This document shows, piece after piece, positions 8,800 through 55,713 of a stretch of DNA of 64,000 nucleotides (position 1 is the stretch's first letter; the number at the start of each line of letters is the position of its first letter). The stretch is from assembly GCA_964390845.1 (NCBI GenBank), contig CAYMIL010000001.1, positions 102,326 to 166,325 of the forward strand. The letters are read 5' to 3'. The notes beneath the pieces were generated by a model. The model searched no databases, was not told the DNA's origin, and was given only the letters and a program-made list of their open reading frames with translations. Source of the stretch: an uncultured Candidatus Saccharibacteria bacterium (GTDB taxonomy: Bacteria; Patescibacteriota; Minisyncoccia; Phycocordibacterales; CALRHW01). Made by a program: the position numbers and the translations under genes.

Positions 8800-9225
8800 A
8801 TGACCACGATGGATTCCAAGGATGGTGTGCTCTCAGTGAGCATCTCTGTGCTGGTTGCGTTTGTCACGTACAACTCGATGGCGAGCATCGAAGACCAGAA
8901 GGGCGTGCTCGAGGCAGCAAGCTTCGTGCTCGGAAAGAACCCGGAGCACGTTGATACCGAAGAGGCCCTGGCGCGATTCGCCATCCTCTATCAGTACCCA
9001 GAGCTTCACGCCCTGACCCACCCAGAGCTCGACATCGAGATTCGGGACATCGAGCAGATCAGCGATCCTGATGAGCGCGCCAAGGAGTACGGCAAGTTCA
9101 TCGAGAAGTGCACAACGCGCTTTGGGGCAACCTTTACCCTGAAGCCCGTGAGCTCTGATTTCCTGGAGCAGTTCGGATTCCTCAACAAGTCCGAGCATGT
9201 CGACAATCCCGCACCGGTGGCCTAA
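8800..9225 (+). CDS. Hypothetical protein (GC-rich island)
   Basis: 141 aa, clean ORF. The second ATG at 8809 has an AAGGA RBS. Noticeably higher GC than flanking genes. Confidence 0.45.
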   Translation: MTTMDSKDGVLSVSISVLVAFVTYNSMASIEDQKGVLEAASFVLGKNPEHVDTEEALARFAILYQYPELHALTHPELDIEIRDIEQISDPDERAKEYGKFIEKCTTRFGATFTLKPVSSDFLEQFGFLNKSEHVDNPAPVA

Positions 9226-9375
9226 CGGCCCCAACACAACCTCACCCCGGCTGGTCCAAGCGAGAACCCCGCGTTCTCTGCCTTGGGCCAGCCACTTTTT
9301 TATATAAAAATAGGCCACCGCAGTGATGCAGTGGCCCATGGGGGTTGGGGCGGAAAACGCACGCCAGTGCGAGTT

Positions 9376-9627
9376 TTAGACCCGCCGAAGTGAGAGGAGC
9401 TCCTGTGGCCAGAAGCGGAACCTACCGCAGGGACTGCGATAGAGACCGCCAGGGGTCAAGAAGATGTCCACCTCTTCCACCTTCGGGGGCTTACGACGAC
9501 CAGTCTTCTCGATGACCTTGATTCGAAGACCTGCGACGCCGTTCTTTTCCGTCTGAGAGATGACGCTGACCAAGATGCGTACCTTTCCAATCAAAGAGCT
9601 GTTGTGGTGAACGTCCATGATCACCAC
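9376..9627 (-). CDS. Hypothetical small basic protein (GTG or internal ATG start)
   Basis: 83 aa ORF (KVRILVSVISQTEKNGVAGLRIKVIEKTGRRKPPK). Start uncertain. Confidence 0.3.
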   Translation of the reverse strand: MVIMDVHHNSSLIGKVRILVSVISQTEKNGVAGLRIKVIEKTGRRKPPKVEEVDIFLTPGGLYRSPCGRFRFWPQELLSLRRV

Positions 9628-9670
9628 TGCCCCATATGATACCCTATTTTAACGAAATGTCAAACACAAC

Positions 9671-9700
9671 AAAAAACCACCCGCGCGGGTGGTTTTTTGT
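9671..9700. terminator. Bidirectional Rho-independent terminator
   Basis: AAAAAACCACCCGCGCGGGTGGTTTTTT perfect hairpin flanked by A and T runs, immediately 3' of the tRNA. Confidence 0.7.
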
Positions 9701-9702
9701 GA

Positions 9703-9780
9703 TGGTGACCCTACCGGGATTTGAACCCGGGTTTTAAGCTTGAGAAGCTCACGTCCTGGACCAGGCTAGACGATAGGGCC
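9703..9780 (-). tRNA. tRNA-Glu (anticodon CUC), CCA encoded
   Basis: Reverse complement GGCCCTATCGTCTAGCCTGGTCCAGGACGTGAGCTTCTCAAGCTTAAAACCCGGGTTCAAATCCCGGTAGGGTCACCA folds as a cloverleaf. 7-bp acceptor, D-arm like E. coli tRNA-Glu, anticodon loop TTCTCAA, T-loop GTTCAAATC. Confidence 0.85.
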
Positions 9781-9873
9781 GGAAATGCGCCCTACACGGA
9801 CACATGGCACTAGTATACAAATTTTTCTCAAAAAATCCAGAAGAAAGCGCCGCGCCATGGAATGGACGCGGCG

Positions 9874-10176
9874 CTAGCGCGCAGATGTGCCAGCACTCTT
9901 TGTGTTGATCTGAAGCTCATAAGAAGGCTTCCCTTCCGTCTGGCCACACACCAAACACAAACCACTCAGCACGAGCCTCACCCCAACAATCGAGGTATCC
10001 TGCTCGATGCGAGCACTAAGCGCGGAACACTCCGTCTCTGCTTCCTGCTCACCAACGCGGTGAGTAAGCAACGCTCTGTAGAAGCTAAAGAAGGAGTCCT
10101 TGTTCATGTTGGCACGCGCAGGTTCGCCTAAAGCTTTGCAATGGGCAGACTCCACTTCGTATGCAACAATCCGCAT
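9874..10176 (-). CDS. Hypothetical protein (GC-rich)
   Basis: 100 aa ORF. ATG preceded by GGAGGT RBS. No recognisable motifs. Confidence 0.4.
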   Translation of the reverse strand: MRIVAYEVESAHCKALGEPARANMNKDSFFSFYRALLTHRVGEQEAETECSALSARIEQDTSIVGVRLVLSGLCLVCGQTEGKPSYELQINTKSAGTSAR

Positions 10177-10222
10177 GGAAACCTCCTTTCGAGAACGGTT
10201 TCGGGGTCAATTATACAAAAAC

Positions 10223-33515: not shown

Positions 33516-34034
33516 ATGGGACACAAAACAGTTATCGTGCATGACACGATGCAACGTGGATACACATACACGTTGTCGGCACCCATCGGTAAAGATTTTG
33601 ACCCCGATTTCAAACCAGACCTTACTCCAGCAGAGATGCTTTCACTCGGCGTATTTGGTGGCGTATACATGCGCGACTGCACTGACGAGTTTCCAAAAGA
33701 ATGGTTTACGCATGCACGGTTTGCGCCAAGAGATGTGCGCACACATGTCGCAGACCTCAACTTTTTCGGCGTACAGGCGAGTCAGCCGTTGTCTGTATGG
33801 CGAAAAAAAGGGTGGATTTACAATGATGACCCACGAGGATGGTTTCAGTGGTATTGCAGATATTACATGGGTCGCCGTCTTCCCGAAGAAGATGCTCGAC
33901 AGATAAAACGATGGCGTGCAATGCGAAGACACAGTGCACAGATTCACCACAACTGCAGACCTGGCGACATGTCGTGTCATCGAAAACAGCGACAAGCGCT
34001 TCTCCACTGGGCTTACGATAGCCGGAAAATTTAG
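33516..34034 (+). CDS. Conserved hypothetical protein, Trp/Tyr-rich with Cys/His-rich C-terminus
   Basis: 172 aa. RBS-like spacing. Motifs GWFQWYCRYYMGRR, HHNCRPGDMSCH. Family not recognised. Confidence 0.45.
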   Translation: MGHKTVIVHDTMQRGYTYTLSAPIGKDFDPDFKPDLTPAEMLSLGVFGGVYMRDCTDEFPKEWFTHARFAPRDVRTHVADLNFFGVQASQPLSVWRKKGWIYNDDPRGWFQWYCRYYMGRRLPEEDARQIKRWRAMRRHSAQIHHNCRPGDMSCHRKQRQALLHWAYDSRKI

Positions 34035-34047
34035 AACAGAGACCGCC

Positions 34048-34242
34048 CTATTTCAAATACTTACTTGCGACACTGAGCGCAAAAGATGGGAGTATGATGA
34101 ACACACACGTCATAAGCATTCGCAAGAGAATTTGATTGAGGGGTGCATTGTCATTGTCGACGCCAAATAGCGCGAGGCATAGGCCAATAATACCAAACGC
34201 AATCGAGGCATATATAAACACACGAGTTGAAATCTTTTGCAT
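34048..34242 (-). CDS. Small hypothetical membrane protein (2 TM)
   Basis: 64 aa, two hydrophobic helices. Confidence 0.3.
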   Translation of the reverse strand: MQKISTRVFIYASIAFGIIGLCLALFGVDNDNAPLNQILLRMLMTCVFIILPSFALSVASKYLK

Positions 34243-34418
34243 AGAGATAGTATATCACTATTCATCAATTGTTTACCTGAAACGCATACACTTCGTCAGC
34301 CCGCTTCACCTCTTCAATATTTCGCAAGTCATACTCGCGTTGAGAAATATCTACAAAAGGCATTTCAATAATGCATGCATCGAAAGCAATGAATTCGTCT
34401 AATCTTTTTGTCAATCAA

Positions 34419-35369
34419 TCACCCCTCGCAAATATCCCACTCAAACCCCCTACCGAAATGTCCACCCACAGATGTTTTAGCAAATTTAATTTTATCTAAT
34501 CGAAGCAATGTTCTAATACCAAGCGGAGATAGATCGTAATCATCTATAGACACCTCTTTTCCATCCACAAGTGCAATATTCATCACAGGATTTTGTTTAC
34601 CTATAGCATATGCGAGCTTTACCAGCACCTCTTTGGCATTATATTTTTTCAAATAATCAACGGCGATTTTTCTAGCAACATATGCTCCGGAACGATCTAC
34701 CTTTGTATAATCTTTTCCAGAAAAAGAACCTCCGCCTATTGGCACCCTTGGCCCATAATTATCTATAACAATTTTTCTACCAGACAAACCGGTGTCTGCA
34801 TCAAAACCGCCCTGCTTCCATTCACCTGCAGGATTTATCAAATACTCCTCTGCTTTAATTATTTTTTTTACTAACTTCAAAAGTTCGGGAGATTTTGTGT
34901 TTTGAAAACTTGCGACGACGGTTTTAACTTTTTTATTTTCTATAGTAACCTGCGTCTTTCCATCATATGGATATTTTTTGTAAATTTCCATGCATAGATT
35001 TCTCGCAAGCTCATATTCTAGTGGTAATAAATTTTTAGTTTCGTTACACGCATAGCCGATCATGATTCCCTGATCTCCAGCTCCGCCAGTATCAACTCCG
35101 CGAGCTATTTCAGGACTTTGTTTTGAAATATTGATTATTATCTTATACCCCTTCCCCACAATGTCTTTTACAATTTTCTCTAATTGTGGATTCGCTTTTG
35201 ATGTCACCTCTCCATTTATTGTGATAAGTTTGTGACCGCCCATTATTTCTACAGCAACTCTAGATTCCGGATCTTTTTTCAAATATGCATCGAGAATGCT
35301 GTCTGCTATAACATCACATTGCTTGTCAGGATGTTTTGGACTAACAAATTCTGCTGTGTATGTACTCAT
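34419..35369 (-). CDS. metK: S-adenosylmethionine synthetase (short, AT-rich gene)
   Basis: Start at the internal Met with an AAGAGGA RBS. GHPDK-like motif (SPKHPDK) and GGGSFSGKDYTKVDRSGAY (MetK signature GGGAFSGKDPTKVDRS). About 316 aa, shorter than typical. Confidence 0.75.
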   Translation of the reverse strand: MSTYTAEFVSPKHPDKQCDVIADSILDAYLKKDPESRVAVEIMGGHKLITINGEVTSKANPQLEKIVKDIVGKGYKIIINISKQSPEIARGVDTGGAGDQGIMIGYACNETKNLLPLEYELARNLCMEIYKKYPYDGKTQVTIENKKVKTVVASFQNTKSPELLKLVKKIIKAEEYLINPAGEWKQGGFDADTGLSGRKIVIDNYGPRVPIGGGSFSGKDYTKVDRSGAYVARKIAVDYLKKYNAKEVLVKLAYAIGKQNPVMNIALVDGKEVSIDDYDLSPLGIRTLLRLDKIKFAKTSVGGHFGRGFEWDICEG

Positions 35370-35594
35370 ATAAATAAAAAATTCCTCTTGTAATGAGGAA
35401 AGATAGCGACGTTTTATCTTTCCCAAACTGGGCCAGATGGAGCACCTTGTGTACACAGGTTGCTGAATGGTCATTGAGCTGGATCTCTCGCATTCTCTTG
35501 ATATATTCAGTTGTGATTACATTTTAGCACATGTTAATTATGTGGGGCAACAAAAGAAAAAGAGAGCGCTTTCGTGCTCTCTCATCCTATAGTG

Positions 35595-35667
35595 CTCCGC
35601 GGCTAGGGATCGAACCTAGGACCTAGCGATTAACAGTCGCTTGCTCTACCAGCTGAGCTACCGCGGA
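35595..35667 (-). tRNA. tRNA-Asn (anticodon GUU)
   Basis: Reverse complement TCCGCGGTAGCTCAGCTGGTAGAGCAAGCGACTGTTAATCGCTAGGTCCTAGGTTCGATCCCTAGCCGCGGAG folds as a cloverleaf. Anticodon loop CTGTTAA, T-loop TTCGATC. CCA not encoded. Confidence 0.85.
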
Positions 35668-35839
35668 ATGTCGTACGCGCCACCTGCGCGTAAAAAACAT
35701 AATAGCAAAACTAGGCCATGATGCAACCCGCCACGAATAGCCCAGCCATTGACAACCACATTTTTCAGCAGTATTCTATCGACCAGAGTACACTGACGTT
35801 TACGACACACCACTCGCACACCTTACCAAGGAATATGCC

Positions 35840-36178
35840 ATGAGGGAGGGTCCCGGACACGGTGCGATCGCGGCAGAGTTTTTCCGATTCTTTCACAAGA
35901 AATCGACCCCGCGCCACACCATCGAGAACGATCTGATCTTCAAGAAAGCCAAGACGTTTGGTGTCGTGCCTTCGACACTGCTGGGCTTTCTCCAGTCACT
36001 GCACTACACCCACCGCCTCCCGAAAACTCAGTACACATACACCGTGTGCGCTGAGTTCCTTTCGGGAGAGCCAACCGTGGAGGACGTGATCAAGTTCATC
36101 TGGAAGAGCGTCGATGACGCCTATCTGGAGCGACGCATGCGTTTTCAGCGTCGTCATGCACCAACCGCCAATACCTAA
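35840..36178 (+). CDS. Hypothetical protein (GC-rich island)
   Basis: 112 aa ORF. High GC relative to flanks. Confidence 0.4.
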   Translation: MREGPGHGAIAAEFFRFFHKKSTPRHTIENDLIFKKAKTFGVVPSTLLGFLQSLHYTHRLPKTQYTYTVCAEFLSGEPTVEDVIKFIWKSVDDAYLERRMRFQRRHAPTANT

Positions 36179-36198
36179 GACAACAGAAGGAACCGACC

Positions 36199-36846
36199 AT
36201 GAAGAACAGCCAGACCGAGCTTCGCAAGCGCATGAAAGCATTCACGAGCGATGTCTCGACCAGGTTCACCATCTCGCTCGCAAGCCAGGCGTTTCCGGAC
36301 AAGGAACACGCCGACATCCCAATGATCGGCCGGGAAGGCCGGAAACTCGGCACGATTCCGGAGATCACGGAAGGCATGGTGCGCTCATGCATCGCAAGCG
36401 CGCTCGACAAGGTCAACGCACACATACCTCCCGAAGAACTCGAGAAGGCTGTGTGCGGATGGGAAGGTCGCACCGCGCGAGGTGTTGCTATGCGCGCGTG
36501 CCGTGTCTGCGTGCGCGAGTTCACGCTCGAGTGCATGGACATCGTCTACACGGAGATCTTCGCCTGCCTCGCACTGGAAGAGCGCTTTGAGTGGAACTCG
36601 TGCCTGAAGCGCCTCGGCGCAAACCAGGGCGACCTGGCAGAACTCGAGTTCAATCTGTCCAAGCGACTCAACGTGCCACAGATGACAAACGAGGAACGAC
36701 TCGCTGTCATCAACACGTTCCACTCGAACAAGCCAATCCTGGCAAGCGACGTCCTGTCGTTCTGTCTCAAGCCCTTTCTCGAGCGCAAGCTCACGGCCCT
36801 TCAGATCCTCTATCGCAACCCAAGCGATGTGAGCACTGCGGCCTAA
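36199..36846 (+). CDS. Hypothetical protein, Cys-containing (GC-rich island)
   Basis: 215 aa. AGGAAC-like RBS 6 nt upstream. No motifs recognised. Confidence 0.45.
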   Translation: MKNSQTELRKRMKAFTSDVSTRFTISLASQAFPDKEHADIPMIGREGRKLGTIPEITEGMVRSCIASALDKVNAHIPPEELEKAVCGWEGRTARGVAMRACRVCVREFTLECMDIVYTEIFACLALEERFEWNSCLKRLGANQGDLAELEFNLSKRLNVPQMTNEERLAVINTFHSNKPILASDVLSFCLKPFLERKLTALQILYRNPSDVSTAA

Positions 36847-36959
36847 ACCAACACCCTCGCGGACAAGTTTGTTCGCGGGGGTGTTCTACTTTGACAACAC
36901 CACATACAGCACGTACCATCAATACAGGCGCACACCATCAACACGGAAGGAGGTTGGTA

Positions 36960-37262
36960 ATGAAATTCCCACGCAACGAAACAGCGCATACGGTCGAACG
37001 ATACGTCGTTCAGGCGCTCTTCATTCAGTTCCTCTTCAGGAACAAGGTCAACGACAAGACACTCAAGATCACCACAAGCACTGTCGGGGCGCTCTCCCTT
37101 GGCAAGGTGCACATCGAGACGTTTGTCCACGAGTTGTCGCTTGAGTGCAAGAACAAGATCTGCCTCAGCGACAAGGAAATGAACCATCTTCTGGAGGAAC
37201 ATCGGACAATCGACGAGATCATCACGCTCTTGTGGGAGAAGACGAAAACCTCCCGCACGTGA
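36960..37262 (+). CDS. Hypothetical protein (GC-rich island)
   Basis: About 100 aa from MKFPRNE, with a GGAGG RBS. Followed by a strong terminator. Confidence 0.4.
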   Translation: MKFPRNETAHTVERYVVQALFIQFLFRNKVNDKTLKITTSTVGALSLGKVHIETFVHELSLECKNKICLSDKEMNHLLEEHRTIDEIITLLWEKTKTSRT

Positions 37263-37293
37263 GATGAAGGTCACGAATGGTTGATAGGACTTA

Positions 37294-37327
37294 GGGCGCG
37301 CCGCACAGCGGCGCGCCCTTCTTTTTT
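37294..37327 (+). terminator. Rho-independent terminator
   Basis: GGGCGCGCCG-CACAG-CGGCGCGCCC perfect 10-bp GC stem followed by TTCTTTTTT. Confidence 0.7.
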
Positions 37328-37808
37328 ACCTAGTTACAGATATTGGAGTAGACGGGTCAATCTCACTATTTGCAGAAACAGTAATCCTATCCGTCTCCTG
37401 ATTACGTGAAATGGTATACCCTGTCGCATACTCATCTGTATTAGCTGGTTGGGACACAAGTGAATCGTGTGGCAACTGTGCAAGATACAGCGGAACCAGA
37501 CATGGGCGGATATCGATTGTCCCAGCGCCACCAAGAGAACTCATCTCAGCACCTGGCTCAAGCGGGATATCAAACGCACTACCGTCACACGTAAAGACAC
37601 CGCGATTGTCGGCAATGTTTTGTCCAACCGCATTGAGAATCGCATTCACATTACTCACCCGTTGAGAATCTCTCGCTTGCTTAAATTGCCTCGACGGATT
37701 AATTGCTACAAGTACTATGCCCGCAAGAATCGCAATGATTCCAAGCACAAGCAAAATTTCTATCAACGTAAACCCTCTCGTATGTATTCTTTTCTTCATA
37801 TCGCTCAC
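37326..37808 (-). CDS. Type IV pilin / pseudopilin with prepilin N-terminal cleavage-methylation domain
   Basis: RGFTLIEILLVLGIIAILAGIV class III signal peptide. Variable C-domain with Cys pair. Confidence 0.75.
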   Translation of the reverse strand: MSDMKKRIHTRGFTLIEILLVLGIIAILAGIVLVAINPSRQFKQARDSQRVSNVNAILNAVGQNIADNRGVFTCDGSAFDIPLEPGAEMSSLGGAGTIDIRPCLVPLYLAQLPHDSLVSQPANTDEYATGYTISRNQETDRITVSANSEIDPSTPISVTR

Positions 37809-38373: not shown

Positions 38374-40044
38374 TTACCCTGCAATTGGCAACTCAACATA
38401 GAACTGTGAGCCCCTGCCCTCACCTTCAGACTCTGCCCAGACACGGCCGTTGTGCGCCTTCACAATCTCTTTAGCAACATAGAGCCCCAGACCTGTTCCA
38501 CGAATATTGACCTTGTTTGCGTTTTCTGCGCGCTTAAACTTTGCAAAGAGTTTCGGAATAATCTCAGCAGACATACCGATACCTGTGTCTTTGACCGCAA
38601 ACAACACCACTCCTTTTGCTGGGTCTTTTGTGAGTGACACGGTAATCGAACCCTGTGGTGTGTACTTTACTGAGTTATCAATAAGATTTGCGACGACCTG
38701 CTTAAACTTATCGAGGTCAGCATTGACCACAAACTTCTGTCGCTCATCAAGCTGGATAGTGAGGTCGAGGCCGGCTTTGTCTATGTTTGGCTTCAGCTCA
38801 CCCGCAACCTCTCTCACCATATCTTTAAGATCGAGTGGACGCATATCGTATTTCATAGTTCCAAGCTCGATACGAGAAATATTAAGGTAGTCGTTGACGA
38901 CGTTTGTGAGCGTGTTTGTTGATTCGTAAATTTTCTGTACAGCATCACGCACATCCGGTGCAACATCTCCGTAATCCCCTTCAAGAATGAGTGACGAATA
39001 CCCCTTCATTGCAGTAAGCGGGCTTCGGAGTTGATGTGTCGCAAACGAAACAAATTCTGTCTTTTGGACATCAAGTTCTTTGAGGCGGGTGTTGGCGTGC
39101 TCTAAGCTGGTATTTGTTTTCTTTAAGTTTTCGGCCAAAATCTCGATTTCTTCACGTGATTTTATTTCTCTTTTTACACTTCTTATAAGTTGATATCCTA
39201 ATATCGAAAACAGAGCGAGTGTTACAAAAACAACATATCTTACATTTTGTATATTTCTAACAAATAGAATCGAAAACGTGAGCAACCACAGTGTCACTAC
39301 AATGGCTTGTGTACTAATCAACTTTATGTTAAATGCCTTAAATTTAACGACTAAATACACAAGAAATGCAATAAATAGAGGCATCCCTAAAAGTCCGACC
39401 TGAGCAATAACCCAATTTTCAGTCAAACTTCCAATAATATTACCTGAGGAAAAAGCAAAAAGAAAAACAATTATACCCGCCAAAAATAGACCTATCTCTT
39501 TTCTGCGCCTTATTTCAATTGCCATCTGACCAAAACCAACAAATAAAACCGAGAAGCTAAGAAGAATTTCTAGTCCATACGTATAAAAAATAACGAGATT
39601 GCTCTCAACGGCATCACAATAAGAAACATCAATACCAGGAAGAAATCCTTTAGTTGGCAATATTATCGCTACAGGTAAAAGCACAGCCATCAAAAATAGT
39701 TTTTTACTGAAAGGTAAATCTTTTCTTTTTATAAACACATAAGCAAAGTAGAAAGAAACACCGTAAATTAGTACTTCGCATAATATCTGGAGACTCCAAT
39801 AAAACAAAACCAAATCTGGTCTATTGCTTGCCCATAAAAGCACATCGATTACGGCCCAGCTTATAAAAAGAAAAACAACATTTAAAAAAAATCTAATTGA
39901 GAGATCCTGACGTTTATGAAAAAGCAAGGCTGCAAATACTAAAGCGGCAAGAATTGCGACAAAATGAGAGTAGTAAAGTAAGGTTGGAACATTACTTGAG
40001 AAAATAAAATGTTTCGCTGGCTCCCAAGGGCAAAAAATTTCCAT
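38374..40044 (-). CDS. Sensor histidine kinase with polytopic (about 7 TM) N-terminal sensor domain
   Basis: HisKA H-box (HQLRSPLTAMKGY), HATPase_c (N, G1, G2 boxes: GTGLGLYVAKEIV). Start set at the Met just downstream of the neighbouring gene's stop. Confidence 0.8.
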   Translation of the reverse strand: MEIFCPWEPAKHFIFSSNVPTLLYYSHFVAILAALVFAALLFHKRQDLSIRFFLNVVFLFISWAVIDVLLWASNRPDLVLFYWSLQILCEVLIYGVSFYFAYVFIKRKDLPFSKKLFLMAVLLPVAIILPTKGFLPGIDVSYCDAVESNLVIFYTYGLEILLSFSVLFVGFGQMAIEIRRRKEIGLFLAGIIVFLFAFSSGNIIGSLTENWVIAQVGLLGMPLFIAFLVYLVVKFKAFNIKLISTQAIVVTLWLLTFSILFVRNIQNVRYVVFVTLALFSILGYQLIRSVKREIKSREEIEILAENLKKTNTSLEHANTRLKELDVQKTEFVSFATHQLRSPLTAMKGYSSLILEGDYGDVAPDVRDAVQKIYESTNTLTNVVNDYLNISRIELGTMKYDMRPLDLKDMVREVAGELKPNIDKAGLDLTIQLDERQKFVVNADLDKFKQVVANLIDNSVKYTPQGSITVSLTKDPAKGVVLFAVKDTGIGMSAEIIPKLFAKFKRAENANKVNIRGTGLGLYVAKEIVKAHNGRVWAESEGEGRGSQFYVELPIAG

Positions 40045-40054
40045 AAAGTACGTA

Positions 40055-40894
40055 TTATAGCTTTTTTGCAAAAACCTTAAAGTTTCTGAACCCGTTACCA
40101 AATTGATAATCAACAATAAGTTGAACCCTGTCTTTTTTAGTTACCTCTATATCTGAATCGAGCGGAACACAAACTGGACCATTTAGTGCAAGTGTGTCAC
40201 CGATAGAGGTTTTTTTATTTAACCAAGTCGAACTTTGAAGATAAATACTGTTTAAGGTACCTGTTTTTTTAATTTTAATAATATGTTCCGAATGGTGTTC
40301 CATTAAATTACTTTTATTCAGCAGAACGGAATCGAGAAGTGTTGGGTCGGAAAGACGTTTCATTTTTGGTTTTGGTAAAAATTTCCAAAAATGTTTAACC
40401 ATCCGCATATTAAATCCAAAATCATAAAAATTTGTCTCCGTAAGCAAAACGGATGTGTCTTCTTTGCAAGGAATAAATACTGTTTTCTCGTCTACATACC
40501 CCTTTTCAAAAAGCCTGTTTAGTGCCCAGATTTGGAACTCATCCACCATTCCTGTAGTCAACATTTCCATCGTAACAACATCAATAGTTGTACCCTCCGG
40601 AAGACGAATATTACGTGCATCGCCAAGCATAACTTGCACCACGTCACCATATCCATTTCTCTGAATATTCTCGTGGGCGAGTTTTGCGACAAATGGGTCA
40701 AACTCTATAGAAAAAACTTTTTTTGCTCCGGCGCGAGCCGCAAAGAGAGCAAGAATTCCGGAACCCGTTCCAACGTCAAGAACAACGCTGTCCGGCCCCA
40801 CAGCCGCATTAATAGCTTGTTCAAATTTCCTTGTTCTTTCCTCATCAAGGAGACACTGTGTAACTAAATCAATAGAGCTAAATGTTTCGTCCAT
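40055..40894 (-). CDS. Class I SAM-dependent methyltransferase with PRMT-like motifs
   Basis: Motif I VVLDVGTGSGILALFAARAGA, post-I IEFDP, motif II IDVVTMEML. Reminiscent of protein arginine methyltransferases. Confidence 0.6.
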   Translation of the reverse strand: MDETFSSIDLVTQCLLDEERTRKFEQAINAAVGPDSVVLDVGTGSGILALFAARAGAKKVFSIEFDPFVAKLAHENIQRNGYGDVVQVMLGDARNIRLPEGTTIDVVTMEMLTTGMVDEFQIWALNRLFEKGYVDEKTVFIPCKEDTSVLLTETNFYDFGFNMRMVKHFWKFLPKPKMKRLSDPTLLDSVLLNKSNLMEHHSEHIIKIKKTGTLNSIYLQSSTWLNKKTSIGDTLALNGPVCVPLDSDIEVTKKDRVQLIVDYQFGNGFRNFKVFAKKL

Positions 40895-40961
40895 GGATAA
40901 GGTGGTAATTTCTATCTTACAGGGAAATTATAACAAACGAAGTTCTCAAAGAAAAGCAAAC

Positions 40962-41570
40962 CTAAAATCTTCGTGTATGCTTAATGTGTCGAAAAGAAAG
41001 AAGAAACCACATACTTGCGTGACATAAGATCTCAGCAAAAACATAGGGTAACTCCATCCAATTGTCGAGGCGATGAATTATTAGAGTGAGGTTGAGAAAA
41101 TCCATAATCGTCCACAATATCCATGGAGTAGATATTAAATAGGTTTCTTTTGGAAGATTCCTCCAATAAGGAACATAACTAATTGGTATTGCAAGAATAG
41201 CGATTGCGTGCGCCCAGTATTGCTCCCTGAAACAAAGCCATATGATTACGGCTAAAATAGATACGGCGACGGACAAAATATCTGTTATTGCTTCCGACCG
41301 GTTCTCCCATTTATCTTCTCCGAGCCTCCAAACATAGATTAAAATTATTAGACAAGCAATTGGAGTTGTTGCCAATGGTAATGTTTTTACCCAATCACCC
41401 GATACCCAATGAAACGTAACAACTTCTACACATGAAGAAAAAGTCCAAATTAACCAGGACCATCGATTTGGTATAGGATGATTAGGTTTTCTCAGTTCCC
41501 GAAAATAGGAGACGTCCGCTGCCGTTCCAAAAACAACAGCCAAAATAGCCAATAAAATAATAGCATCCAT
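40962..41570 (-). CDS. Hypothetical polytopic membrane protein
   Basis: 202 aa, about 6 TM helices, Trp-rich. Confidence 0.45.
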   Translation of the reverse strand: MDAIILLAILAVVFGTAADVSYFRELRKPNHPIPNRWSWLIWTFSSCVEVVTFHWVSGDWVKTLPLATTPIACLIILIYVWRLGEDKWENRSEAITDILSVAVSILAVIIWLCFREQYWAHAIAILAIPISYVPYWRNLPKETYLISTPWILWTIMDFLNLTLIIHRLDNWMELPYVFAEILCHASMWFLLSFRHIKHTRRF

Positions 41571-41740
41571 ATCACCGCTTCTTAATTTTGAACATTATCA
41601 TCTTCAGTAGAACCAACCTCACTTTGTACAACATAGAAATCGCGGACAATCATTGTTCTGTAAAAAGTTAGCGCGATAGAAATCAATAGAATTAAGACAA
41701 ATAATCCTATAGAAATTTTTGATTTTTTATCCATAGTTTT

Positions 41741-42133
41741 TTATTCTATATTATGAGAAGGATACCTTGTACCTCTTTTTAAGAAATTTTTTTCAATATC
41801 TTTCAGCCCAAACTTTTTATAAAAATAGTTCAGAATCAGCTCAGTATCCATACCATTTTGACATGTATACACATCAGCACTCACAAACCTTCTTTTTGGA
41901 AAAGTGTGAATACTTATGTGACTTTCTGTAAGAGCAATAATACCTGTCCAACCACCAGGATCCTTCTTATTATTTGGTTCAGCTTTATATATCTGGACCT
42001 TAGCTAGGGATTTCATACCGAGGAGGAAAACCAGTTCATTCAATGCGTGCGCCACTAAGTTTTTATCATCGAGGAGTTTTTCTTCCCCTCCATAACCATC
42101 AATTGTGAGATGTTCACCAAAATGCTCTATCAT
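41741..42133 (-). CDS. speH: S-adenosylmethionine decarboxylase proenzyme (small SpeH-type)
   Basis: ESHISIHTFP (self-processing ES|HIS motif; canonical ESHISIHTWPE) and YTCQ. Confidence 0.7.
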   Translation of the reverse strand: MIEHFGEHLTIDGYGGEEKLLDDKNLVAHALNELVFLLGMKSLAKVQIYKAEPNNKKDPGGWTGIIALTESHISIHTFPKRRFVSADVYTCQNGMDTELILNYFYKKFGLKDIEKNFLKRGTRYPSHNIE

Positions 42134-42163
42134 ATATGATATATTAGTGCCAACTAAAGCTCT

Positions 42164-42403
42164 TTAATTTATTGCTTCAATTCTAACATCTTTTGCAATT
42201 ATCTCTAGGGACGGGTCACTATAGTTGGAATGTTGATCTTCATAGCCGTAGAAAACAAACCGTTTATATCCATGGTTTTTAGGAACTTTCCCAACATCGT
42301 CTGTATGACCCAACTCATAATTGGATTTCAGCGTGTTTGTCATAAAATCACTCTCTTCCGTTTCAGTCACCAGCACTTGAACACTAGAATTTAGAGTCCT
42401 CAC
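42164..42403 (-). CDS. Small hypothetical protein
   Basis: 79 aa ORF downstream of the RHS toxin gene and its first small ORF. Confidence 0.3.
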   Translation of the reverse strand: MRTLNSSVQVLVTETEESDFMTNTLKSNYELGHTDDVGKVPKNHGYKRFVFYGYEDQHSNYSDPSLEIIAKDVRIEAIN

Positions 42404-42456
42404 AAAACCAAGAACATCCGTGAATAGGGACTTGATTAGAACATGCGATTCATTTT

Positions 42457-42702
42457 CTACTTTAGCAGTCGCTCTGGAATTACATCACCACGTATCTCTA
42501 TACCAATAATTTTTCCAGCCTGATCAATATCGACAACAATGTCCCCTTTAAAATCCTGTCCTCCCCGTACAGTATTTCCATCAATTACCATTTGCTGTGT
42601 TGCCTGTGGTGGATAGGTATCAGTATTTTGTAGATGAATATAGGAGACCCAAGAACTGCCTGTATTTTCACTTTCTATTTCTATGTTATTTTTTTTAATC
42701 AT
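42457..42702 (-). CDS. DUF2283-like small protein (candidate immunity or antitoxin)
   Basis: 81 aa. DIVVDIDQAGKIIGIEIRG resembles the DUF2283 core. Starts 7 nt after the RHS gene stop. Confidence 0.4.
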   Translation of the reverse strand: MIKKNNIEIESENTGSSWVSYIHLQNTDTYPPQATQQMVIDGNTVRGGQDFKGDIVVDIDQAGKIIGIEIRGDVIPERLLK

Positions 42703-42709
42703 TGATTTT

Positions 42710-45700
42710 TTAATCTATTTTCTTAAACCTGCCGGGTGTCAATACTTCATCCTTAATAACTGTTATTATTCTCTTTGTTGCGTTATCGAGAGGAACTAAA
42801 ACTTGGTCTTTATATCTTACCACCTGTTGATATTTCGAATCAAAATATTTCTCCCCGGTCCTGTAGGCATCCATTACCTTCTCCGCGGTAATACCGAACT
42901 TCTCCCGAATTATAATATTGTCTATTCCATGACTTGAGATCTCGATACCTTCTTTGATAAAAGCATCTTTGATAACATTGTATTTTTGCCTGAAATTGAG
43001 ATTGCTGCTACCAAATCCACTTTTCACAAAGTTCGTTGCAGACTCAACACCACCAATAGCAATCTTCTCGGCTCCTCCAGCAATCTTTACTCCAGTCTTC
43101 TTCTCAGCCCCTCCTGGCGTAAGCATCGATCCAACAAACAATGCACCCTCAAGAGATCTGGACCCTCCTTCTTCACCAACATCTGGAGAATATGCGACTT
43201 CTGGCCATAGAAACATTGTAGCAATTGCCGTCCAGAAGTTTCCATCTCGGTCCACATTCACCATTGGGTTGTTTCTCGCATAAGAATAGCTATTGAGTGA
43301 TTGTGGGTCCGCAAGATACATTGGAAGTTCAAGTCCTGTTTTATCTTTCAAATCTTTTGCGTTTCCGACCGCCAAGAATGCAGGATCCACAGATATAAAC
43401 CGCCCAGTGTTTCCCGCGTAGTACCTCGCTCCCATATAATTAAGCCCTGTCTCAGCATCATACTCATGCCCGGTAAACTTTCGCTGTTCGGAGTAGCCGA
43501 GACCGAAATCTAGGCGAGTCGCGCCATACGGATAATAGTCAACTGTCTCTGCTGAAGTACCAGCTGAGTTTGTGATCACGCTTGAACCACCAAGATGATC
43601 GTTGTGAATATACAGAATATCTGGCGTCGATGTACCGTGTGTTTCAATTGTTGCCACGACCTGGTCACCCAAAAACACGTGCGCGGTTGTCGTGGTGCCT
43701 CCAGAACCAGACAAGCCCGAATCATCCGACACCTCAATGTTCCAATATTTATTTGGATACACTGTCGTGTTCCGTCCAAACGCATAGACAACGCGGTCGC
43801 CAGCATGGTCGTAAGAATACGTTGTTGCCGCAGGACCCACAGTGAGCATCGTCGGTCTGTTTTTATAATCCCAGGTACTTGTTGCAATGCCATTGCCCGT
43901 CAGCATATTGCCATTGCGGTCGTATGTCAGTGTTCCCGTAACCGGAGTCGACACTACGGCGTGCGGGTTTGCATACTGACTTTTTACCGACGTGCTTGGA
44001 TACGTATATGTGCCGATATCAGACTTGCTGAGAATGTTGCCGATAGCGTCATAGGTATACGTCTCACGGTACGGCAACGTCGCTGCTGCCGTTGTCGATG
44101 CAGAAAGAAGGCGGTAGAGATTGTCGTAGACATATTCAACCGTACGCTGAATTGTTGTTGTGGCGTTCTCTTTAAGTAAGGTTATGTTTCCAACCTTGTC
44201 ATACGTATACTCAAGATCTTGATACTTCGTACCGCTTGCACCCGACTGCTTTGTTACTTTTTTAGTGAGACGATATAGCTTGTTTGCGTCGTATGTATTC
44301 GTTGCCTCAATTCCGTTTGCGTTTTTCTGGAAACTAACCTTGCCTTCTGGAGAGTAATCAAGGTCATCCACCAACACAGAGAACGACGTCGCACTCGGAA
44401 GCTTCTGTAACACACGCTCTACAAAACCACCGTTGTTGTATTCATACTGTATCTGCAAACCATCTGGATAGGTGATAAGTGTGGGGTTTCCCTGTCGATT
44501 AAATGCATACGCTGTGGTATATGTCGCACCAGATATTGTCCGACCTTCTTGCACCACACGCCCAGCGGTGTCATATGCATATGTGGTTGTTGCTCCCTGT
44601 GTCACAGCCTGGCACAATCTCGTCTTTCCAAATGCGCATGTATCATACGCGTACACAACATCGACACCCGGTGTGCCTGTGAAGTTTTCAGTAAGTGGCC
44701 GATTGATGGCGTCGTAAGTATATTGAATTGTCTGACCCTTTCCATCGACTACCTGCGTTATATTTCCAGCATTATCATAGGAATATGACCATGTAGAAAA
44801 TGAGGTGTCTGCTGGATCATGAAGATCCTGTGCGGTTAGACGGCGACCCAAACCGTCGTAGGTAAAGCTACGAATATTTCCGAGTGCATCGGTAATTTTT
44901 GTGAGTAAATTTAGACCATTATATTCGTAGTATGTGGAATACGTACTCGTGCCATTGTATTCATCAACCCGAATGAGGTTGCCACGAGCATCCTTGTACA
45001 ACTTCCTCTGATTGTTTAGCGGATCTTTTACAAGGACATCCCATCCGTCATATGTTGTTGTGGTGGTACCGAGATAATTTTTTGCAGAAGTCACACGTCC
45101 CAGTGCATCGTATGAAAACTCTTGTCGTAAATTATTATCAACTGGCGTAGAATCATAATCAGAACCATCAGTAACAAAAAATGGCAACGAGTGCTGTTTC
45201 TTCAAACCACGAGAATCGTACCCGATCTTTGTAACCGTGAAAGCGTCTTGGTCACCCTCTGACTGAACACGTTCTTGTATGACACGACCAAAGCCATCGA
45301 AATACGTGTATGTTGGCACAGACATTCCAGCATCAAGATATTGTGTTTTTACTACGCCTGTAGGAAATTGATTATCAAGATATGTATACGAACTTTTTTC
45401 CTCAAGTGTCGATACCAACGATGGACTTGAAACCTTTTCAGACAAGACCCTATCAAGGCCATCATAAACAAACTCTGTTACCTTTCCATTTTCATCAACA
45501 ATTTTTTTAGGTTTTCCAGATGAGTAATCATACTGAAAATCTTTGATGTGACCCACGGAATTGGTCGTCGTTGATGGATACAAACCATATACATCGTAAG
45601 CATATGTTGTGGTTGCTCCAAGGGAATTGATTTCACCAACAATCAGGCCTTTCTCATCGTAAATTGATTGCTCATTTACAAAACCCGATCCACTTTTCCA

Positions 45701-48367
45701 ATTTTCAATCTTTGTCTTATTACCAAACGACACAGAGCCTAATGGGAGACTGTCGTAATAAATCTTACTTTCAGACAATAATCCACTACCAACATCAACA
45801 AGCGACACACGCGAAGGCAGGACGATTCGACCATCTGAACTTGTTGCGTAAAAATATTTTTTAGTAGTTTTATCTGTACCAACATCGGAAAAACCCCCAA
45901 CACCATCACCGATAACTTTTCCCCACTGATCTTCTCTACTAATCGACAAAGCGAGATCGTCATACTCATATGTGGTTGCACGATCAACCGGAGTACCGCC
46001 TTCACCATATTGCCTTTCCAAAAAGGTTGTCAGTTTCAGAAATGACGATGTTGCACTTATTGAGGAATTATGACTATCCCACCTATTTTGAATACTGGAT
46101 AATATATTCCCCTCATTATCATATGTTTCAATAAGATACGGCCTTCCAATCTTTGAATAATTATCCTGAAACTCTCCAGTTGTGAATGACGTTTGATTTC
46201 CTTGGTGAAAATATTTTTTTGTAATATTCCCGATCGGATCTGTCTCAATGATTAATCCGAATCCAGAGACTTTCTTATCATGTGAATCTGCATAATATAG
46301 ATCACCCTCTGTATACACATAAGTAGTAGTTCCAACGCCTCCCACGCCGTCATGAACGGCAATCGAAGACACGGTTATTAGATTTTCTGGAAGGTTCGGA
46401 TTCAACACGCCGCCTACTCCAGTATATTGAGCTGACCCCTTATACGTTACCAATACAGAACCTTTTTGGGGCAATAAATAGTAATGGAGCTTATCCGAAA
46501 CATCTCCGATATGGCGATAAACTTTATTAATTACACCCTCACTCGTGCGTCTACTAATAAGTAAATCCATTAGACCATCCCCGTCTATATCAGCAAAACG
46601 AACGCCCTGATCGGTGTTATTGAAATTAAAAAATTCTGGAATATCCCACGAGGTATCGAGTGTCCAGCCGTGACCGGTGTTTAGATATACTTTTTTAACT
46701 TCGATATATGGATCACCGCCCCTCCAAGCACGAATCAAATCAACAAGTCCATCACTATTTATATCTTCAAATCTTACCCCACCGTCCGTTTGAGATTTGA
46801 AAATTTCTGGAATATCCCACGAGGTATCGAGTGTCCAGCCGTGACCAGTGTTTAGATATACTTTTTTAACCTCGATATATGGATCACCTCCACGCCAACT
46901 TTTTACAATGTCTGGCAACATATCGCCATTTACATCAATCAAATATACACCCCTATCATGCGTATCCTCAACAAAAAACTCTGGCAGACTCCACGAAGTA
47001 TCGAGTGCCCAACCGCTACCAGTATTTAAATACACAACCCTTACATCTTCAGGTGGCTCAGGGTTTCCTAACATTCCGCGCACAATATCTGGCAAACCAT
47101 CCCCATTCACATCAGCAATTCTAGTGCCAGAATCCTTATTGTAATTTATAATAAACTCTTCTGGAACGCTTACAGCAGGATCCTCAACCCAATCACCTTG
47201 AGAGCTTGTATAAGTAAAACTTCTTGCTGGCAACACCACCTCCTGGCTTTCAGATTCAAAACCTTTTTCTACTACCGATCCCAATAAATCTCTCGACTTG
47301 TTATTTCCCTTACTATACGTGAAATCGTAAGCTCTACTTAGAGTAGAACCAACATAAATATTAATTTTGTTAATTCTAAAAGATGTCGTGACTGGAAAAG
47401 AAGTTTTATATGAAATTGTAGATGTTGCCAAATTCTCTTTAAGAAATTCAACTTTGTACAGACCGCTATCTGTTCCATACCCCGTGTATTTTATATATTT
47501 CGGATAAATTTGCCCCCCATCTTTCTCATATTCATATTTTATAAAGTTGCCATTTGCATCTTGAATCGTGTCGACCATCCATCGAAACACATGACTTGTG
47601 GTCGTGGCATCGCCCTGTCGACTTTGTGAGGTTAACCCAAAAGAATACCTTGTACCATTTCTGTCATATACAGTCCATATATTATTAGTTAATTCATATT
47701 TTCCAAAACTACCATCATCTACACGCGGCAAAAATGTGCTCGTAGTAGCGCCCAACGATGCCACAGAAAGCTCTCCCGACATTGATGAGAAAAAATTGTT
47801 TTCTGTATAGATCTTTTCCACACCAGAACGATTAATACGCTCTATGTACGGAACATCAATAGACCAACCGAATCCTACATAACTACCAAGAGTTCCAGAA
47901 TTACTACCGTAAGAAATACGCAATTGTGGATTCATTCCATTTCTACCTGGCGGTATAACAATTGGAATTTCAGTCTGGAAAGATCCATCAATATCAGCTA
48001 CGTTAAATATTTTTATATTTTCTGGAGTTTTAATATATCCCGTTTCGTCCTCAGACGACTGCATAACTAAGCCCCCATCTTCACCACCCTCATCCCGCCC
48101 AGCGCTAGATGTTCCATCGACAGAAAAAATGGGCGTAACATCGCCCATTGCATCTCCACTATTAATTGTCGGTTTTTCTATAGACGAGTCCTTCTTTTCG
48201 GCCCCCTCTCCAGCAGAATCGGATGACGTATCGCCCTCAGAAGAAGATTCTGAATCGCCATCCTGAGATACAGACACCTCAAAAGCGCTCACCATACCAG
48301 CGGGAACAACAAAAGAAATAATGAGGATACTCGTAAGAAAACGTAGTAAAAATGAAGGTTTTTTCAT
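42710..48367 (-). CDS. Secreted RHS/YD-repeat polymorphic toxin with FG-GAP/VCBS-like repeats and variable C-terminal toxin domain
   Basis: 1885 aa. Signal peptide. Four DxNxDGxxD repeats (ADVNGDGLPDIV, IDVNGDMLPDIV, EDINSDGLVDLI, ADIDGDGLMDLL). Dozens of YD repeats (YxYDxxGR). RHS core end (YDAETGLNYMGARYYAGNTGRFISVDP...YARNNPMVNVDRDGN), then an unrelated roughly 240-aa C-terminus. Confidence 0.85.
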   Translation of the reverse strand: MKKPSFLLRFLTSILIISFVVPAGMVSAFEVSVSQDGDSESSSEGDTSSDSAGEGAEKKDSSIEKPTINSGDAMGDVTPIFSVDGTSSAGRDEGGEDGGLVMQSSEDETGYIKTPENIKIFNVADIDGSFQTEIPIVIPPGRNGMNPQLRISYGSNSGTLGSYVGFGWSIDVPYIERINRSGVEKIYTENNFFSSMSGELSVASLGATTSTFLPRVDDGSFGKYELTNNIWTVYDRNGTRYSFGLTSQSRQGDATTTSHVFRWMVDTIQDANGNFIKYEYEKDGGQIYPKYIKYTGYGTDSGLYKVEFLKENLATSTISYKTSFPVTTSFRINKINIYVGSTLSRAYDFTYSKGNNKSRDLLGSVVEKGFESESQEVVLPARSFTYTSSQGDWVEDPAVSVPEEFIINYNKDSGTRIADVNGDGLPDIVRGMLGNPEPPEDVRVVYLNTGSGWALDTSWSLPEFFVEDTHDRGVYLIDVNGDMLPDIVKSWRGGDPYIEVKKVYLNTGHGWTLDTSWDIPEIFKSQTDGGVRFEDINSDGLVDLIRAWRGGDPYIEVKKVYLNTGHGWTLDTSWDIPEFFNFNNTDQGVRFADIDGDGLMDLLISRRTSEGVINKVYRHIGDVSDKLHYYLLPQKGSVLVTYKGSAQYTGVGGVLNPNLPENLITVSSIAVHDGVGGVGTTTYVYTEGDLYYADSHDKKVSGFGLIIETDPIGNITKKYFHQGNQTSFTTGEFQDNYSKIGRPYLIETYDNEGNILSSIQNRWDSHNSSISATSSFLKLTTFLERQYGEGGTPVDRATTYEYDDLALSISREDQWGKVIGDGVGGFSDVGTDKTTKKYFYATSSDGRIVLPSRVSLVDVGSGLLSESKIYYDSLPLGSVSFGNKTKIENWKSGSGFVNEQSIYDEKGLIVGEINSLGATTTYAYDVYGLYPSTTTNSVGHIKDFQYDYSSGKPKKIVDENGKVTEFVYDGLDRVLSEKVSSPSLVSTLEEKSSYTYLDNQFPTGVVKTQYLDAGMSVPTYTYFDGFGRVIQERVQSEGDQDAFTVTKIGYDSRGLKKQHSLPFFVTDGSDYDSTPVDNNLRQEFSYDALGRVTSAKNYLGTTTTTYDGWDVLVKDPLNNQRKLYKDARGNLIRVDEYNGTSTYSTYYEYNGLNLLTKITDALGNIRSFTYDGLGRRLTAQDLHDPADTSFSTWSYSYDNAGNITQVVDGKGQTIQYTYDAINRPLTENFTGTPGVDVVYAYDTCAFGKTRLCQAVTQGATTTYAYDTAGRVVQEGRTISGATYTTAYAFNRQGNPTLITYPDGLQIQYEYNNGGFVERVLQKLPSATSFSVLVDDLDYSPEGKVSFQKNANGIEATNTYDANKLYRLTKKVTKQSGASGTKYQDLEYTYDKVGNITLLKENATTTIQRTVEYVYDNLYRLLSASTTAAATLPYRETYTYDAIGNILSKSDIGTYTYPSTSVKSQYANPHAVVSTPVTGTLTYDRNGNMLTGNGIATSTWDYKNRPTMLTVGPAATTYSYDHAGDRVVYAFGRNTTVYPNKYWNIEVSDDSGLSGSGGTTTTAHVFLGDQVVATIETHGTSTPDILYIHNDHLGGSSVITNSAGTSAETVDYYPYGATRLDFGLGYSEQRKFTGHEYDAETGLNYMGARYYAGNTGRFISVDPAFLAVGNAKDLKDKTGLELPMYLADPQSLNSYSYARNNPMVNVDRDGNFWTAIATMFLWPEVAYSPDVGEEGGSRSLEGALFVGSMLTPGGAEKKTGVKIAGGAEKIAIGGVESATNFVKSGFGSSNLNFRQKYNVIKDAFIKEGIEISSHGIDNIIIREKFGITAEKVMDAYRTGEKYFDSKYQQVVRYKDQVLVPLDNATKRIITVIKDEVLTPGRFKKID

Positions 48368-55167: not shown

Positions 55168-55713
55168 GTGAAAAACACTCTTCGCATCTGCGTACGTGGG
55201 ACACGTGTTGTCCTGCTTCTCGCGCTGATCGGCCTCGTGGCACTGTCGTTTAAGGGGGCGCTCAACGTGAGCTACCTACGTGTGGTAGCGCCAGAATACA
55301 AACTGAGGGAAACTGGGGTTCAGATTTCCCGGGGAGCACTGCGCTTTATCGATAACTGGTCACCCCAAACCGTCGCAGGAATTCAATCGTGGAATGGTTT
55401 CCGTTTCGACTTCGTGGTCTGGGATAGAGCACACAAGTACTACGATTCTGGAACCCTCTCGTTTTCAAGAGAAGGTGTTTACACCGGTTTCGGCTTCCAG
55501 TTCATCAACACTGGCGACGGTATGTACTACCGCACCTCACTGACACTCCCCCTCATCGCCTTCGTTGCCATCTGGCTTCTGTGGGAGGTGTGGTTCTGGA
55601 GAAAGCAGTTTGTGATGTGGCGCACCGCGCATCGCCGGACACACGGCCTGTGCACCCACTGCGCATACAAGCTCGGTAGCAACGTATGCTCAGAGTGTGG
55701 CACCAGAAACTAG
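55168..55713 (+). CDS. Hypothetical membrane protein with C-terminal CxxC...CxxC zinc-ribbon (GC-rich, GTG start)
   Basis: AAAGGAGG RBS 7 nt before GTG. Two TM helices. CTHCAYKLGSNVCSECG. Confidence 0.5.
   Translation: MKNTLRICVRGTRVVLLLALIGLVALSFKGALNVSYLRVVAPEYKLRETGVQISRGALRFIDNWSPQTVAGIQSWNGFRFDFVVWDRAHKYYDSGTLSFSREGVYTGFGFQFINTGDGMYYRTSLTLPLIAFVAIWLLWEVWFWRKQFVMWRTAHRRTHGLCTHCAYKLGSNVCSECGTRN

Follow-up and report, generated by a model that had tools for sequence, protein, structure and literature searches.

Classical genomic islands associated with transfer RNA (tRNA) genes occupy the 3' end of the tRNA. In Patescibacteria, the Candidate Phyla Radiation (CPR), genomic islands and gene transfer are frequent and account for up to 13% of genome length, and most transfers into these genomes come from other Patescibacteria (PMC12455944). 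Natural competence has been demonstrated experimentally in Saccharibacteria (PMC10187176, PMC10633639). The locus presented here belongs to this setting. It lies in a window of 64,000 nucleotides (nt), i.e. the whole stretch of DNA that was analysed, on the forward strand of contig CAYMIL010000001.1 (positions 102,326 to 166,325; GenBank assembly GCA_964390845.1) from an uncultured Candidatus Saccharibacteria bacterium. Between a tRNA-Asn gene and a type IV pilin-like gene, this window carries a segment rich in guanine and cytosine (GC) with three short open reading frames (ORFs). The segment is probably a foreign islet of ~1.6 kb with orphan genes that was recently acquired by the CPR genome and entered without a site-specific integrase, its donor more likely being a poorly sampled pool of Patescibacteria or phage genes than a well-sampled host.

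Extent and base composition of the islet

The islet is set apart by its base composition. The original prediction placed a three-gene island at 35668-37330 and claimed a GC break beside tRNA-Asn; the break proved to be large, as the GC content of this interval (0.551) is the highest of all 1663-bp segments in the 64 kb (mean 0.458, standard deviation (sd) 0.037, z ~2.5) and the GC content at third codon positions (GC3) of its genes deviates with z values of +4.6 to +6.0. At a resolution of 400 bp, the profile peaks at 0.60 around ~36200-36800 and is flanked by values of 0.36-0.40 on the left, where metK is located, and of 0.45-0.49 on the right, over the pilin gene. Tetranucleotide distance gives a similar deviation for the islet (z ~2.5). 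Since positions 35668 to ~35734 are the leader and promoter of tRNA-Asn, the foreign segment is slightly narrower on the left than first reported and extends from 35735 to 37325 (~1.6 kb), with a GC content of 0.554 versus 0.409 and 0.451 in the adjoining 2 kb on the left and right, respectively. Its left limit is set by the tRNA-Asn promoter motif together with the end of contig k141_69359 at 35734, and its right limit is the stop codon of the pilin gene at 37326.

Both neighbours are resident genes. The tRNA-Asn gene (GTT anticodon; 35594..35667, - strand) was detected with ARAGORN and by the Rfam tRNA model (69.3 bits), and its 5' end faces the islet. A promoter-like sequence, TTGCAT-16 nt-TATTAT, is found 31 nt upstream of it (35699..35726, - strand), as judged by motif resemblance only. 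The right flank is the type IV pilin-like gene (37326..37808, - strand), whose product contains an N-terminal methylation motif (Pfam N_methyl, E = 1.3e-6). This product shares 69-71% amino-acid identity with its counterparts in the two relatives introduced below, and the gene is native and syntenic.

Three coding frames and a probable mis-annotation

Three ORFs on the + strand occupy the islet, at the places and with the good ribosome-binding sites that had been described for them from the letters alone. ORF1 (P1; 35840-36178) encodes 112 amino acids (aa) and has a GC3 of 0.696 (z +4.6), ORF2 (P2; 36199-36846; 215 aa) starts 20 nt after ORF1 and has a GC3 of 0.767 (z +5.8), and ORF3 (P3; 36960-37262; 100 aa) reaches a GC3 of 0.780 (z +6.0); all z values refer to the 45 other genes of the window (GC3 0.421 ± 0.060). 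Synonymous codon usage also separates the islet ORFs from the other genes of the window (chi2 = 258.5, df 41, p = 2e-33). Uniform GC content or codon usage, named beforehand as the outcome that speaks against a foreign origin, is therefore not the case: the islet holds the GC maximum of the window and its codon usage differs. In a phase-resolved GC plot, the high-GC phase changes from 1 to 0 to 2 exactly at the ORF boundaries. This three-base periodicity is the signature of three real + strand coding frames. Ribosome-binding sites (AAGGAA for ORF1, GAAGGAA for ORF2 and AAGGAGG for ORF3) precede each ATG by 6 nt.

The islet also contains antisense ORFs of 143 and 148 aa. Where ORF3 lies, all public gene calls use the antisense ORF of 143 aa (36843-37274, - strand). 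Because gene callers chose this antisense ORF, the exact ORF3 sequence is missing from the protein collection, in which the 143-aa sequence is present. GC phase, ribosome-binding site, promoter-like site and terminator all favour ORF3, and the antisense call is probably a mis-annotation that arose from the foreign GC content. The identification of ORF3 would thus correct the public annotation.

Predicted transcription units

Candidate expression signals, recognised by consensus match only, surround the three ORFs. A promoter-like site for ORF1 and ORF2 (TTGACA-17 nt-TATTCT; 35749..35777, + strand; 10/12 matches in the consensus scan) stands back to back with the promoter-like site of tRNA-Asn, at a distance of 22 bp. 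Right after the ORF2 stop codon, a 16-bp hairpin (36850..36885, + strand; -28.6 kcal/mol, z = -5.1 versus shuffles) is followed by UCUACUUU, a weak U-tract, and is probably a partial terminator between two transcription units. Directly after this hairpin, a second promoter-like site (TTGACA-17 nt-TACCAT; 36891..36919, + strand; again 10/12 matches) precedes ORF3. The strong GC-stem terminator that had been noted at the end of the island was recovered at 37293..37329 (+ strand), where a hairpin (37293-37319) with a 12-bp stem containing 11 GC pairs is followed by TCTTTTTT (-28.5 kcal/mol, z -4.7). It adjoins the stop codon of the convergent pilin gene, and the hairpin also forms on the - strand, there without a T-run. 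From these motifs, the islet appears to comprise two self-contained transcription units, one composed of promoter, ORF1, ORF2 and hairpin, and the other of promoter, ORF3 and strong terminator. Searches with Rfam gave no RNA family inside the islet.

Gene products without recognised relatives

The ORF1 product is basic (pI 9.7), soluble and predicted to be all-helical; the ORF2 product is neutral, soluble and mostly helical, with eight Cys residues that include a C-x2-C motif at residues 101-104; and the ORF3 product is basic (pI 8.6) and soluble. A hydrophobic span is absent from all three. None of the proteins had been assigned to a family in the original prediction, and this held up, as Pfam, PHROGs, PADLOC, NCBIfam and the sequences of PDB yielded nothing significant for ORF1-ORF3. 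The best family matches of ORF3 are sub-threshold (DUF7881_N, E 0.012 and 16 bits at a cut-off of 27; TIGR04149, E 0.021), and neither ORF1 nor ORF2 matched a toxin, antitoxin or defence family at E <= 1 in PADLOC, Pfam or NCBIfam. The large collections searched with ORF1 and ORF2 amount to ~15 billion proteins. A word-indexed search of 5.8 billion clusters returned only self-matches for both proteins, as did a full HMMER scan of 1.84 billion representatives with ORF2. On this basis, ORF1 and ORF2 are sequence singletons in the collections searched.

Viral and plasmid collections gave the same picture. Scans of IMG/VR with all three proteins produced nothing significant, and tblastn against GenBank phages (ORF1-ORF3) and PLSDB plasmids (ORF2), together with blastn of the whole islet against both, found nothing beyond one chance-level match. 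A resemblance between residues 99-183 of ORF2 and the 'repressor' gp40 of Rhodococcus phage REQ2 (36% identity over 85 aa) was rejected, as its pairwise E of 2e-8 is without database correction and the database E of 0.4 is at chance level. Among all ORFs of the window and of 20 CPR loci, no paralogues or weak homologues of the islet ORFs were detected. AlphaFold2 single-sequence models are of low confidence, with a predicted local distance difference test (pLDDT) value of 51.3 and five helices for ORF1 and a pLDDT of 36.6 for ORF2; beyond a helical character of the two proteins, nothing can be read from them, and a Foldseek search of PDB with the ORF1 model gave no match below E = 3 and was uninformative. 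By eye, residues ~28-56 of ORF1 (…IFKKAKTFGVVPSTLLGFLQS…) resemble a helix-turn-helix, a motif that no profile search detected and that can serve as a lead only. If a function is found for these three proteins, they would define new families.

Comparison with syntenic relatives

A search with metK matched only metagenome-assembled genomes of CPR/Patescibacteria, labelled either Paceibacterota or 'Saccharibacteria'. The two syntenic relatives available, both metagenome-assembled Paceibacterota genomes (loci L005 and L006, the latter from STL-PAT9), were compared with the window; they are distant, at about the family level. L006 is collinear with the window from the methyltransferase gene to PriA at 45-70% amino-acid identity, and L005 is collinear over the part available. 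The order shared with L006 runs methyltransferase, histidine kinase, DUF7282, pilin ... metK ... VanY, S30AE, Fmt, Def, PriA. Between pilin and metK the loci diverge. The window has the order DUF7282, pilin, the islet genes P3, P2 and P1 on the opposite strand, tRNA-Asn, S-adenosylmethionine (SAM) riboswitch and metK, and both relatives have DUF7282, pilin, a 191-aa membrane-anchored protein, tRNA-Asn, variable cargo and metK. A check of synteny at the tRNA-Asn site, proposed together with the original prediction, thus showed that the islet genes are absent from the orthologous slot of both relatives, and no conserved presence was seen. Nothing similar to ORF1-ORF3 is encoded in L005 or L006, and no product of the window resembles the 191-aa protein.

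The cargo between tRNA-Asn and metK differs as well. It consists of GNAT, a GC3-rich orphan, Fur, ParA-like and CysK-like genes in L005, and of NUDIX, a GC-rich orphan, SemiSWEET and SRPBCC genes in L006; the window has no cargo genes in this interval. As gene content beside tRNA-Asn varies among all three genomes, on one side or on both, the locus is a gene-flux hotspot and, if the reading of the islet as acquired DNA is true, the islet marks the tRNA-Asn neighbourhood as such a hotspot in this Paceibacterota lineage. The GC-rich orphans of L005, L006 and the window, ORF1-ORF3 included, share no sequence similarity among them. The orphan genes of the relatives (L005 2932-3717, GC3 0.70; L006 8013-8795, GC3 0.60) have no Pfam hit and stand in genome backgrounds of 0.37-0.39 GC. 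Closer relatives were sought with the neighbouring DUF7282 protein in a JGI metagenome scan and a protein search, which gave none above 45% identity, and look-ups of the exact proteins led only to copies of the same strain that match the window at 100% identity.

The tRNA-Asn itself is conserved, being 100% identical over 79 bp to that of L005. The hexamers TTGCAT and TATTAT with their 16-nt spacing also occur upstream of tRNA-Asn in L005, and L006 has TATGAT in place of TATTAT. MAFFT placed the tRNA-Asn leaders of the window and the relatives out of register, so these sites show resemblance and homology is not demonstrated. In L006, the anticodon loop of tRNA-Asn(GUU) is split by a group I intron of ~265 nt (7086-7351; Rfam RF00028, 84.8 bits, E = 4e-22) that separates the tRNA halves at 7056-7095 and 7359-7400, and ARAGORN missed this tRNA because the intron interrupts the gene. 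Extra partial copies of the tRNA-Asn 5' end (ATTCCGCGGTAGCT), in tandem units of ~55 nt, are located upstream of the tRNA in L005 (2032-2045) and L006 (6949-6962 and 7006-7019). By eye, each copy can fold into a hairpin of ~11 bp, and the copies may be recombination scars or a leader structure.

Mode of acquisition and alternative explanations

Horizontal acquisition, as originally suggested, is the best reading of an islet that combines atypical GC content and codon usage with absence from two syntenic relatives. Most likely, the foreign segment took its place in a flexible slot, bounded by the type IV pilin gene and by the promoter side of tRNA-Asn, with no site-specific integrase involved. 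DNA uptake, plausible because the lineage encodes type IV pili, would probably have been followed by homology-facilitated or illegitimate recombination, or the segment would have replaced an earlier occupant of the slot. Adjacency to the tRNA would then reflect a permissive, recombination-prone intergenic hotspot and not an attachment (att) site. The earlier implication that this adjacency indicates tRNA-targeted integration did not hold, as the islet lies beyond the 5' end and promoter of tRNA-Asn and not at the 3' part, and neither an integrase nor a direct repeat of the tRNA was found. No integrase, recombinase or transposase is present among the called genes over ~9 kb to the left and ~10 kb to the right (26-47 kb of the window). 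Likewise, the window contains no att-type or other flanking direct repeat, and the 5'-end motif of tRNA-Asn occurs only in the tRNA itself. If this reading is right, the islet also cautions against taking adjacency to a tRNA together with a jump in GC content as proof of integrase-mediated insertion or of transfer from a host.

Several points weigh against this reading. The GC-independent dinucleotide signature of the islet is not an outlier (z ~1), so that its deviation is mostly one of GC content, and certain four-fold preferences, for CCA (Pro) and GCA/GCG (Ala) codons, are close to those of the recipient; a native origin would explain both observations too. The 64-kb window is itself a compositional mosaic, with low-GC blocks at 34000-35500 and 39000-43000 and a further GC-rich patch at 8200-10200. 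The relatives are distant and the slot cannot be polarised, the 191-aa gene possibly being a gain in their lineage. Since all copies of the islet are 100% identical, they provide no population or dN/dS (nonsynonymous to synonymous substitution ratio) evidence for selection or expression. Finally, the functional class discussed below rests on size, charge, gene order and a by-eye helix-turn-helix in ORF1 that profile search did not detect, and the structure models are of low confidence.

An unlikely alternative, and the strongest of those considered, is that an integrative element or prophage, driven by an integrase, once targeted tRNA-Asn and left the islet as its decayed remnant or cargo. The tRNA gene does adjoin the islet and its neighbourhood is variable in 3/3 genomes compared. 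Moreover, the one or two extra ATTCCGCGGTAGCT copies of L005 and L006 stand on the islet side of the tRNA and could be scars of site-specific recombination, and the MEGAHIT assembly ERZ27309396 is broken into two contigs whose overlap is precisely the 141-mer 35594-35734, i.e. tRNA-Asn with its leader and promoter. This break implies a branch in the assembly graph and hints at a variant junction in that sample. Against an integrative element stand the missing recombination genes within the ~9 and 10 kb on either side, the absence from the window of flanking direct repeats, derived from the tRNA or otherwise, and of the extra ATTCCGCGGTAGCT copies, a position on the 5'/promoter side at odds with the 3' end used by classical tRNA islands, the small size of 1.6 kb and the lack of PHROG, IMG/VR or phage-database matches.

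It is very unlikely that the genes are native, lineage-specific and fast-evolving, with a high GC3 of internal cause. Such an origin would fit the inconspicuous dinucleotide signature and the recipient-like four-fold codon preferences of Pro, Ala and Gly, and other GC3-rich orphans occur in the window (8809-9225, 9874-10176 and 55168-55713). Furthermore, sampling is poor, to the extent that even for the DUF7282 protein the databases offer no relative above 45% identity, and orphan status is thus weak evidence of foreignness. The size of the deviation argues in the opposite direction, as GC3 exceeds that of the 45 other genes by 4.6-6 sd, and so does its extent, which begins and ends at the islet boundaries, together with the absence of ORF1-ORF3 from the syntenic slot in L005 and L006. 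To our knowledge, no intragenomic process lifts three neighbouring genes to a GC3 of 0.77 where the genome stands at 0.42.

Possible donors

Acquisition from outside leads to the question of the source. Given how GC3 usually scales with genomic GC, the donor would have had a GC content of roughly 55-60%. No identifiable donor or homologue in another lineage was found by protein searches with ORF1 and ORF2 or in the IMG/VR, phage and plasmid collections. The original prediction named a high-GC host as a plausible donor, should the organism be an epibiont; an actinobacterium would be an example of such a host. This proposal is mildly disfavoured and, taken by itself, carries a low probability. 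In its favour, a GC3 of ~0.75 implies a donor with a GC content above that of the recipient, and cultivated Patescibacteria live on host bacteria (PMC10633639). Heavy sampling of high-GC phyla, on the other hand, has left ORF1 and ORF2 without a homologue among ~15 billion proteins, and the islet shares with the recipient a preference for Pro CCA and Ala GCA. A GC3 of 0.70-0.78 is also lower than is typical for actinobacteria with 65-70% GC.

A poorly sampled, higher-GC pool of Patescibacteria or phage genes would be at least as likely a source as a high-GC host, because ORF1 and ORF2 have no homologue in heavily sampled phyla, because the islet is recipient-like in its dinucleotide signature and in its choice of Pro, Ala and Gly codons, and because the survey of transfers into Patescibacteria traces most of them to other members of the group, which in turn counts against a host donor (PMC12455944).

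Assembly support

The islet proteins are also encoded on a 5.8-kb Logan contig, on ENA contigs from two further assemblies and in an NCBI record with a 290-kb contig, and all DNA fetched from these records matches the window with 100% identity over both junctions. As the contigs that bridge both junctions stem from different assemblers and runs (Logan, MEGAHIT k141, scaffold_866), a chimeric join is ruled out. An artefact, be it such a join or GC-rich non-coding DNA with accidental ORFs, is accordingly the least credible of all explanations: long spurious ORFs on both strands are expected in GC-rich DNA, as illustrated by the antisense ORFs of 143 and 148 aa, and all records may derive from one study, but both junctions are bridged by contigs from different assemblers and runs (that of NCBI spanning 290 kb), the three-base GC periodicity is in phase with the three + strand ORFs, matched ribosome-binding sites lie 6 nt from each ATG and a chance ORF of 215 codons is improbable at the GC content of the islet (own estimate, ~0.05 expected per 1.6 kb).

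Other compositional features of the window

On the far side of tRNA-Asn, a SAM riboswitch (35411..35507, - strand; Rfam RF00162, 56.2 bits) heads metK and lies 86 bp past the 3' end of the tRNA. The metK gene (34419-35474, - strand) is publicly called as an ORF of 351 aa with the S-AdoMet synthetase domains of Pfam. The riboswitch overlaps the first ~20 codons of this ORF, and the true start is probably an internal Met (MSTYTAEF…). Riboswitch, metK and a 64-aa ORF form a block of low GC content (0.38; 34048-35507) with amino-acid identities of 93% and 86% to L005 and L006, respectively, compared with 45-70% for neighbouring syntenic genes, which suggests a recent exchange with a relative of lower GC content.

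The second GC-rich patch of the window, at 8200-10200, surrounds tRNA-Glu (9703-9780, - strand) and includes two orphan ORFs with no Pfam hit. One of them, at 8809-9225 (+ strand) beside tRNA-Glu, has a GC3 of 0.77 and a third-base composition almost identical to that of the islet, and the other is found at 9874-10176 (- strand). Within this patch, the stretch 8200-8650 (~53% GC) shows neither codon periodicity nor a good ORF and matches nothing in Rfam. In tetranucleotide composition, the window deviates most strongly in the low-GC block at 39000-43000 (0.33-0.37), which contains genes for a histidine kinase, a TRM5-like methyltransferase and an AdoMet decarboxylase. Next comes a gene for a 1885-aa RHS/YD-repeat protein (SpvB, TEN_YD-shell; 42710-48367).

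Putative function and comparison with known systems

With regard to function, the islet may tentatively be viewed as an accessory cassette of the mobile gene pool, of either a moron-like or an addiction/defence kind. In this arrangement, the small basic ORF1 product would bind DNA as a regulator or act as an antidote to the effector, a role that would fall to the Cys-rich product of the co-transcribed ORF2, and ORF3 would contribute a small accessory protein under its own expression. A bolder proposal, and rather a long shot, is that ORF1-ORF2, with or without ORF3, constitute the founding example of an undescribed accessory system that circulates among Patescibacteria or phage genes: GC3-rich orphan cassettes that are repeatedly captured beside tRNA genes, independently of an integrase and in a lineage-specific manner. 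The orphan at 8809-9225 beside tRNA-Glu would be a second such cassette, and those near tRNA-Asn in L005 and L006 would be others. As a new type of module, the system could act in addiction, against phages or in host interaction.

Among known systems, the islet recalls type II toxin-antitoxin and small defence modules in that its small basic protein (112 aa) is followed, 20 nt later, by a larger one (215 aa) in one putative operon, and in its horizontal acquisition and location in a variable hotspot. Unlike these modules, the islet matches no toxin, antitoxin or defence model of PADLOC, Pfam or NCBIfam and has a third gene with a predicted transcription unit of its own. Phage morons are comparable in that the predicted units of the islet would have their own promoter and terminator, to judge by consensus promoter-like sites and strong hairpins, and in the deviating GC content and the small genes placed between two resident genes. 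Here, the difference lies in the surroundings, as the neighbours of the islet are chromosomal (metK, tRNA-Asn, pilin, DUF7282, histidine kinase), with no prophage and no phage homologues. Bacterial ORFans, which are taxonomically restricted and often attributed to phages or mobile gene pools, share with the islet genes a short length, an atypical composition and the lack of homologues. The islet genes are markedly more GC-rich than their genome, whereas a higher AT content is usual for classical ORFans.

With tRNA-associated genomic islands, the islet has in common the atypical composition and codon usage, the location beside a tRNA, the absence from relatives, the cargo of no known function and the recurrent gene flux, yet it differs from them by its position at the 5'/promoter side of the tRNA, by the lack of an integrase or flanking direct repeat and by a length of only 1.6 kb. 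The islands and transferred genes described for Patescibacteria are similar in their CPR recipient and in having been picked by composition; the islet is far smaller than predictions of the IslandViewer type, encodes singleton proteins only and has no traceable donor (PMC12455944). Of all these categories, genomic islets and moron-type cassettes come closest to the way it works, and it fits best among the orphan-gene islets that CPR genomes have acquired horizontally, a kind that has been reported to be common (PMC12455944).

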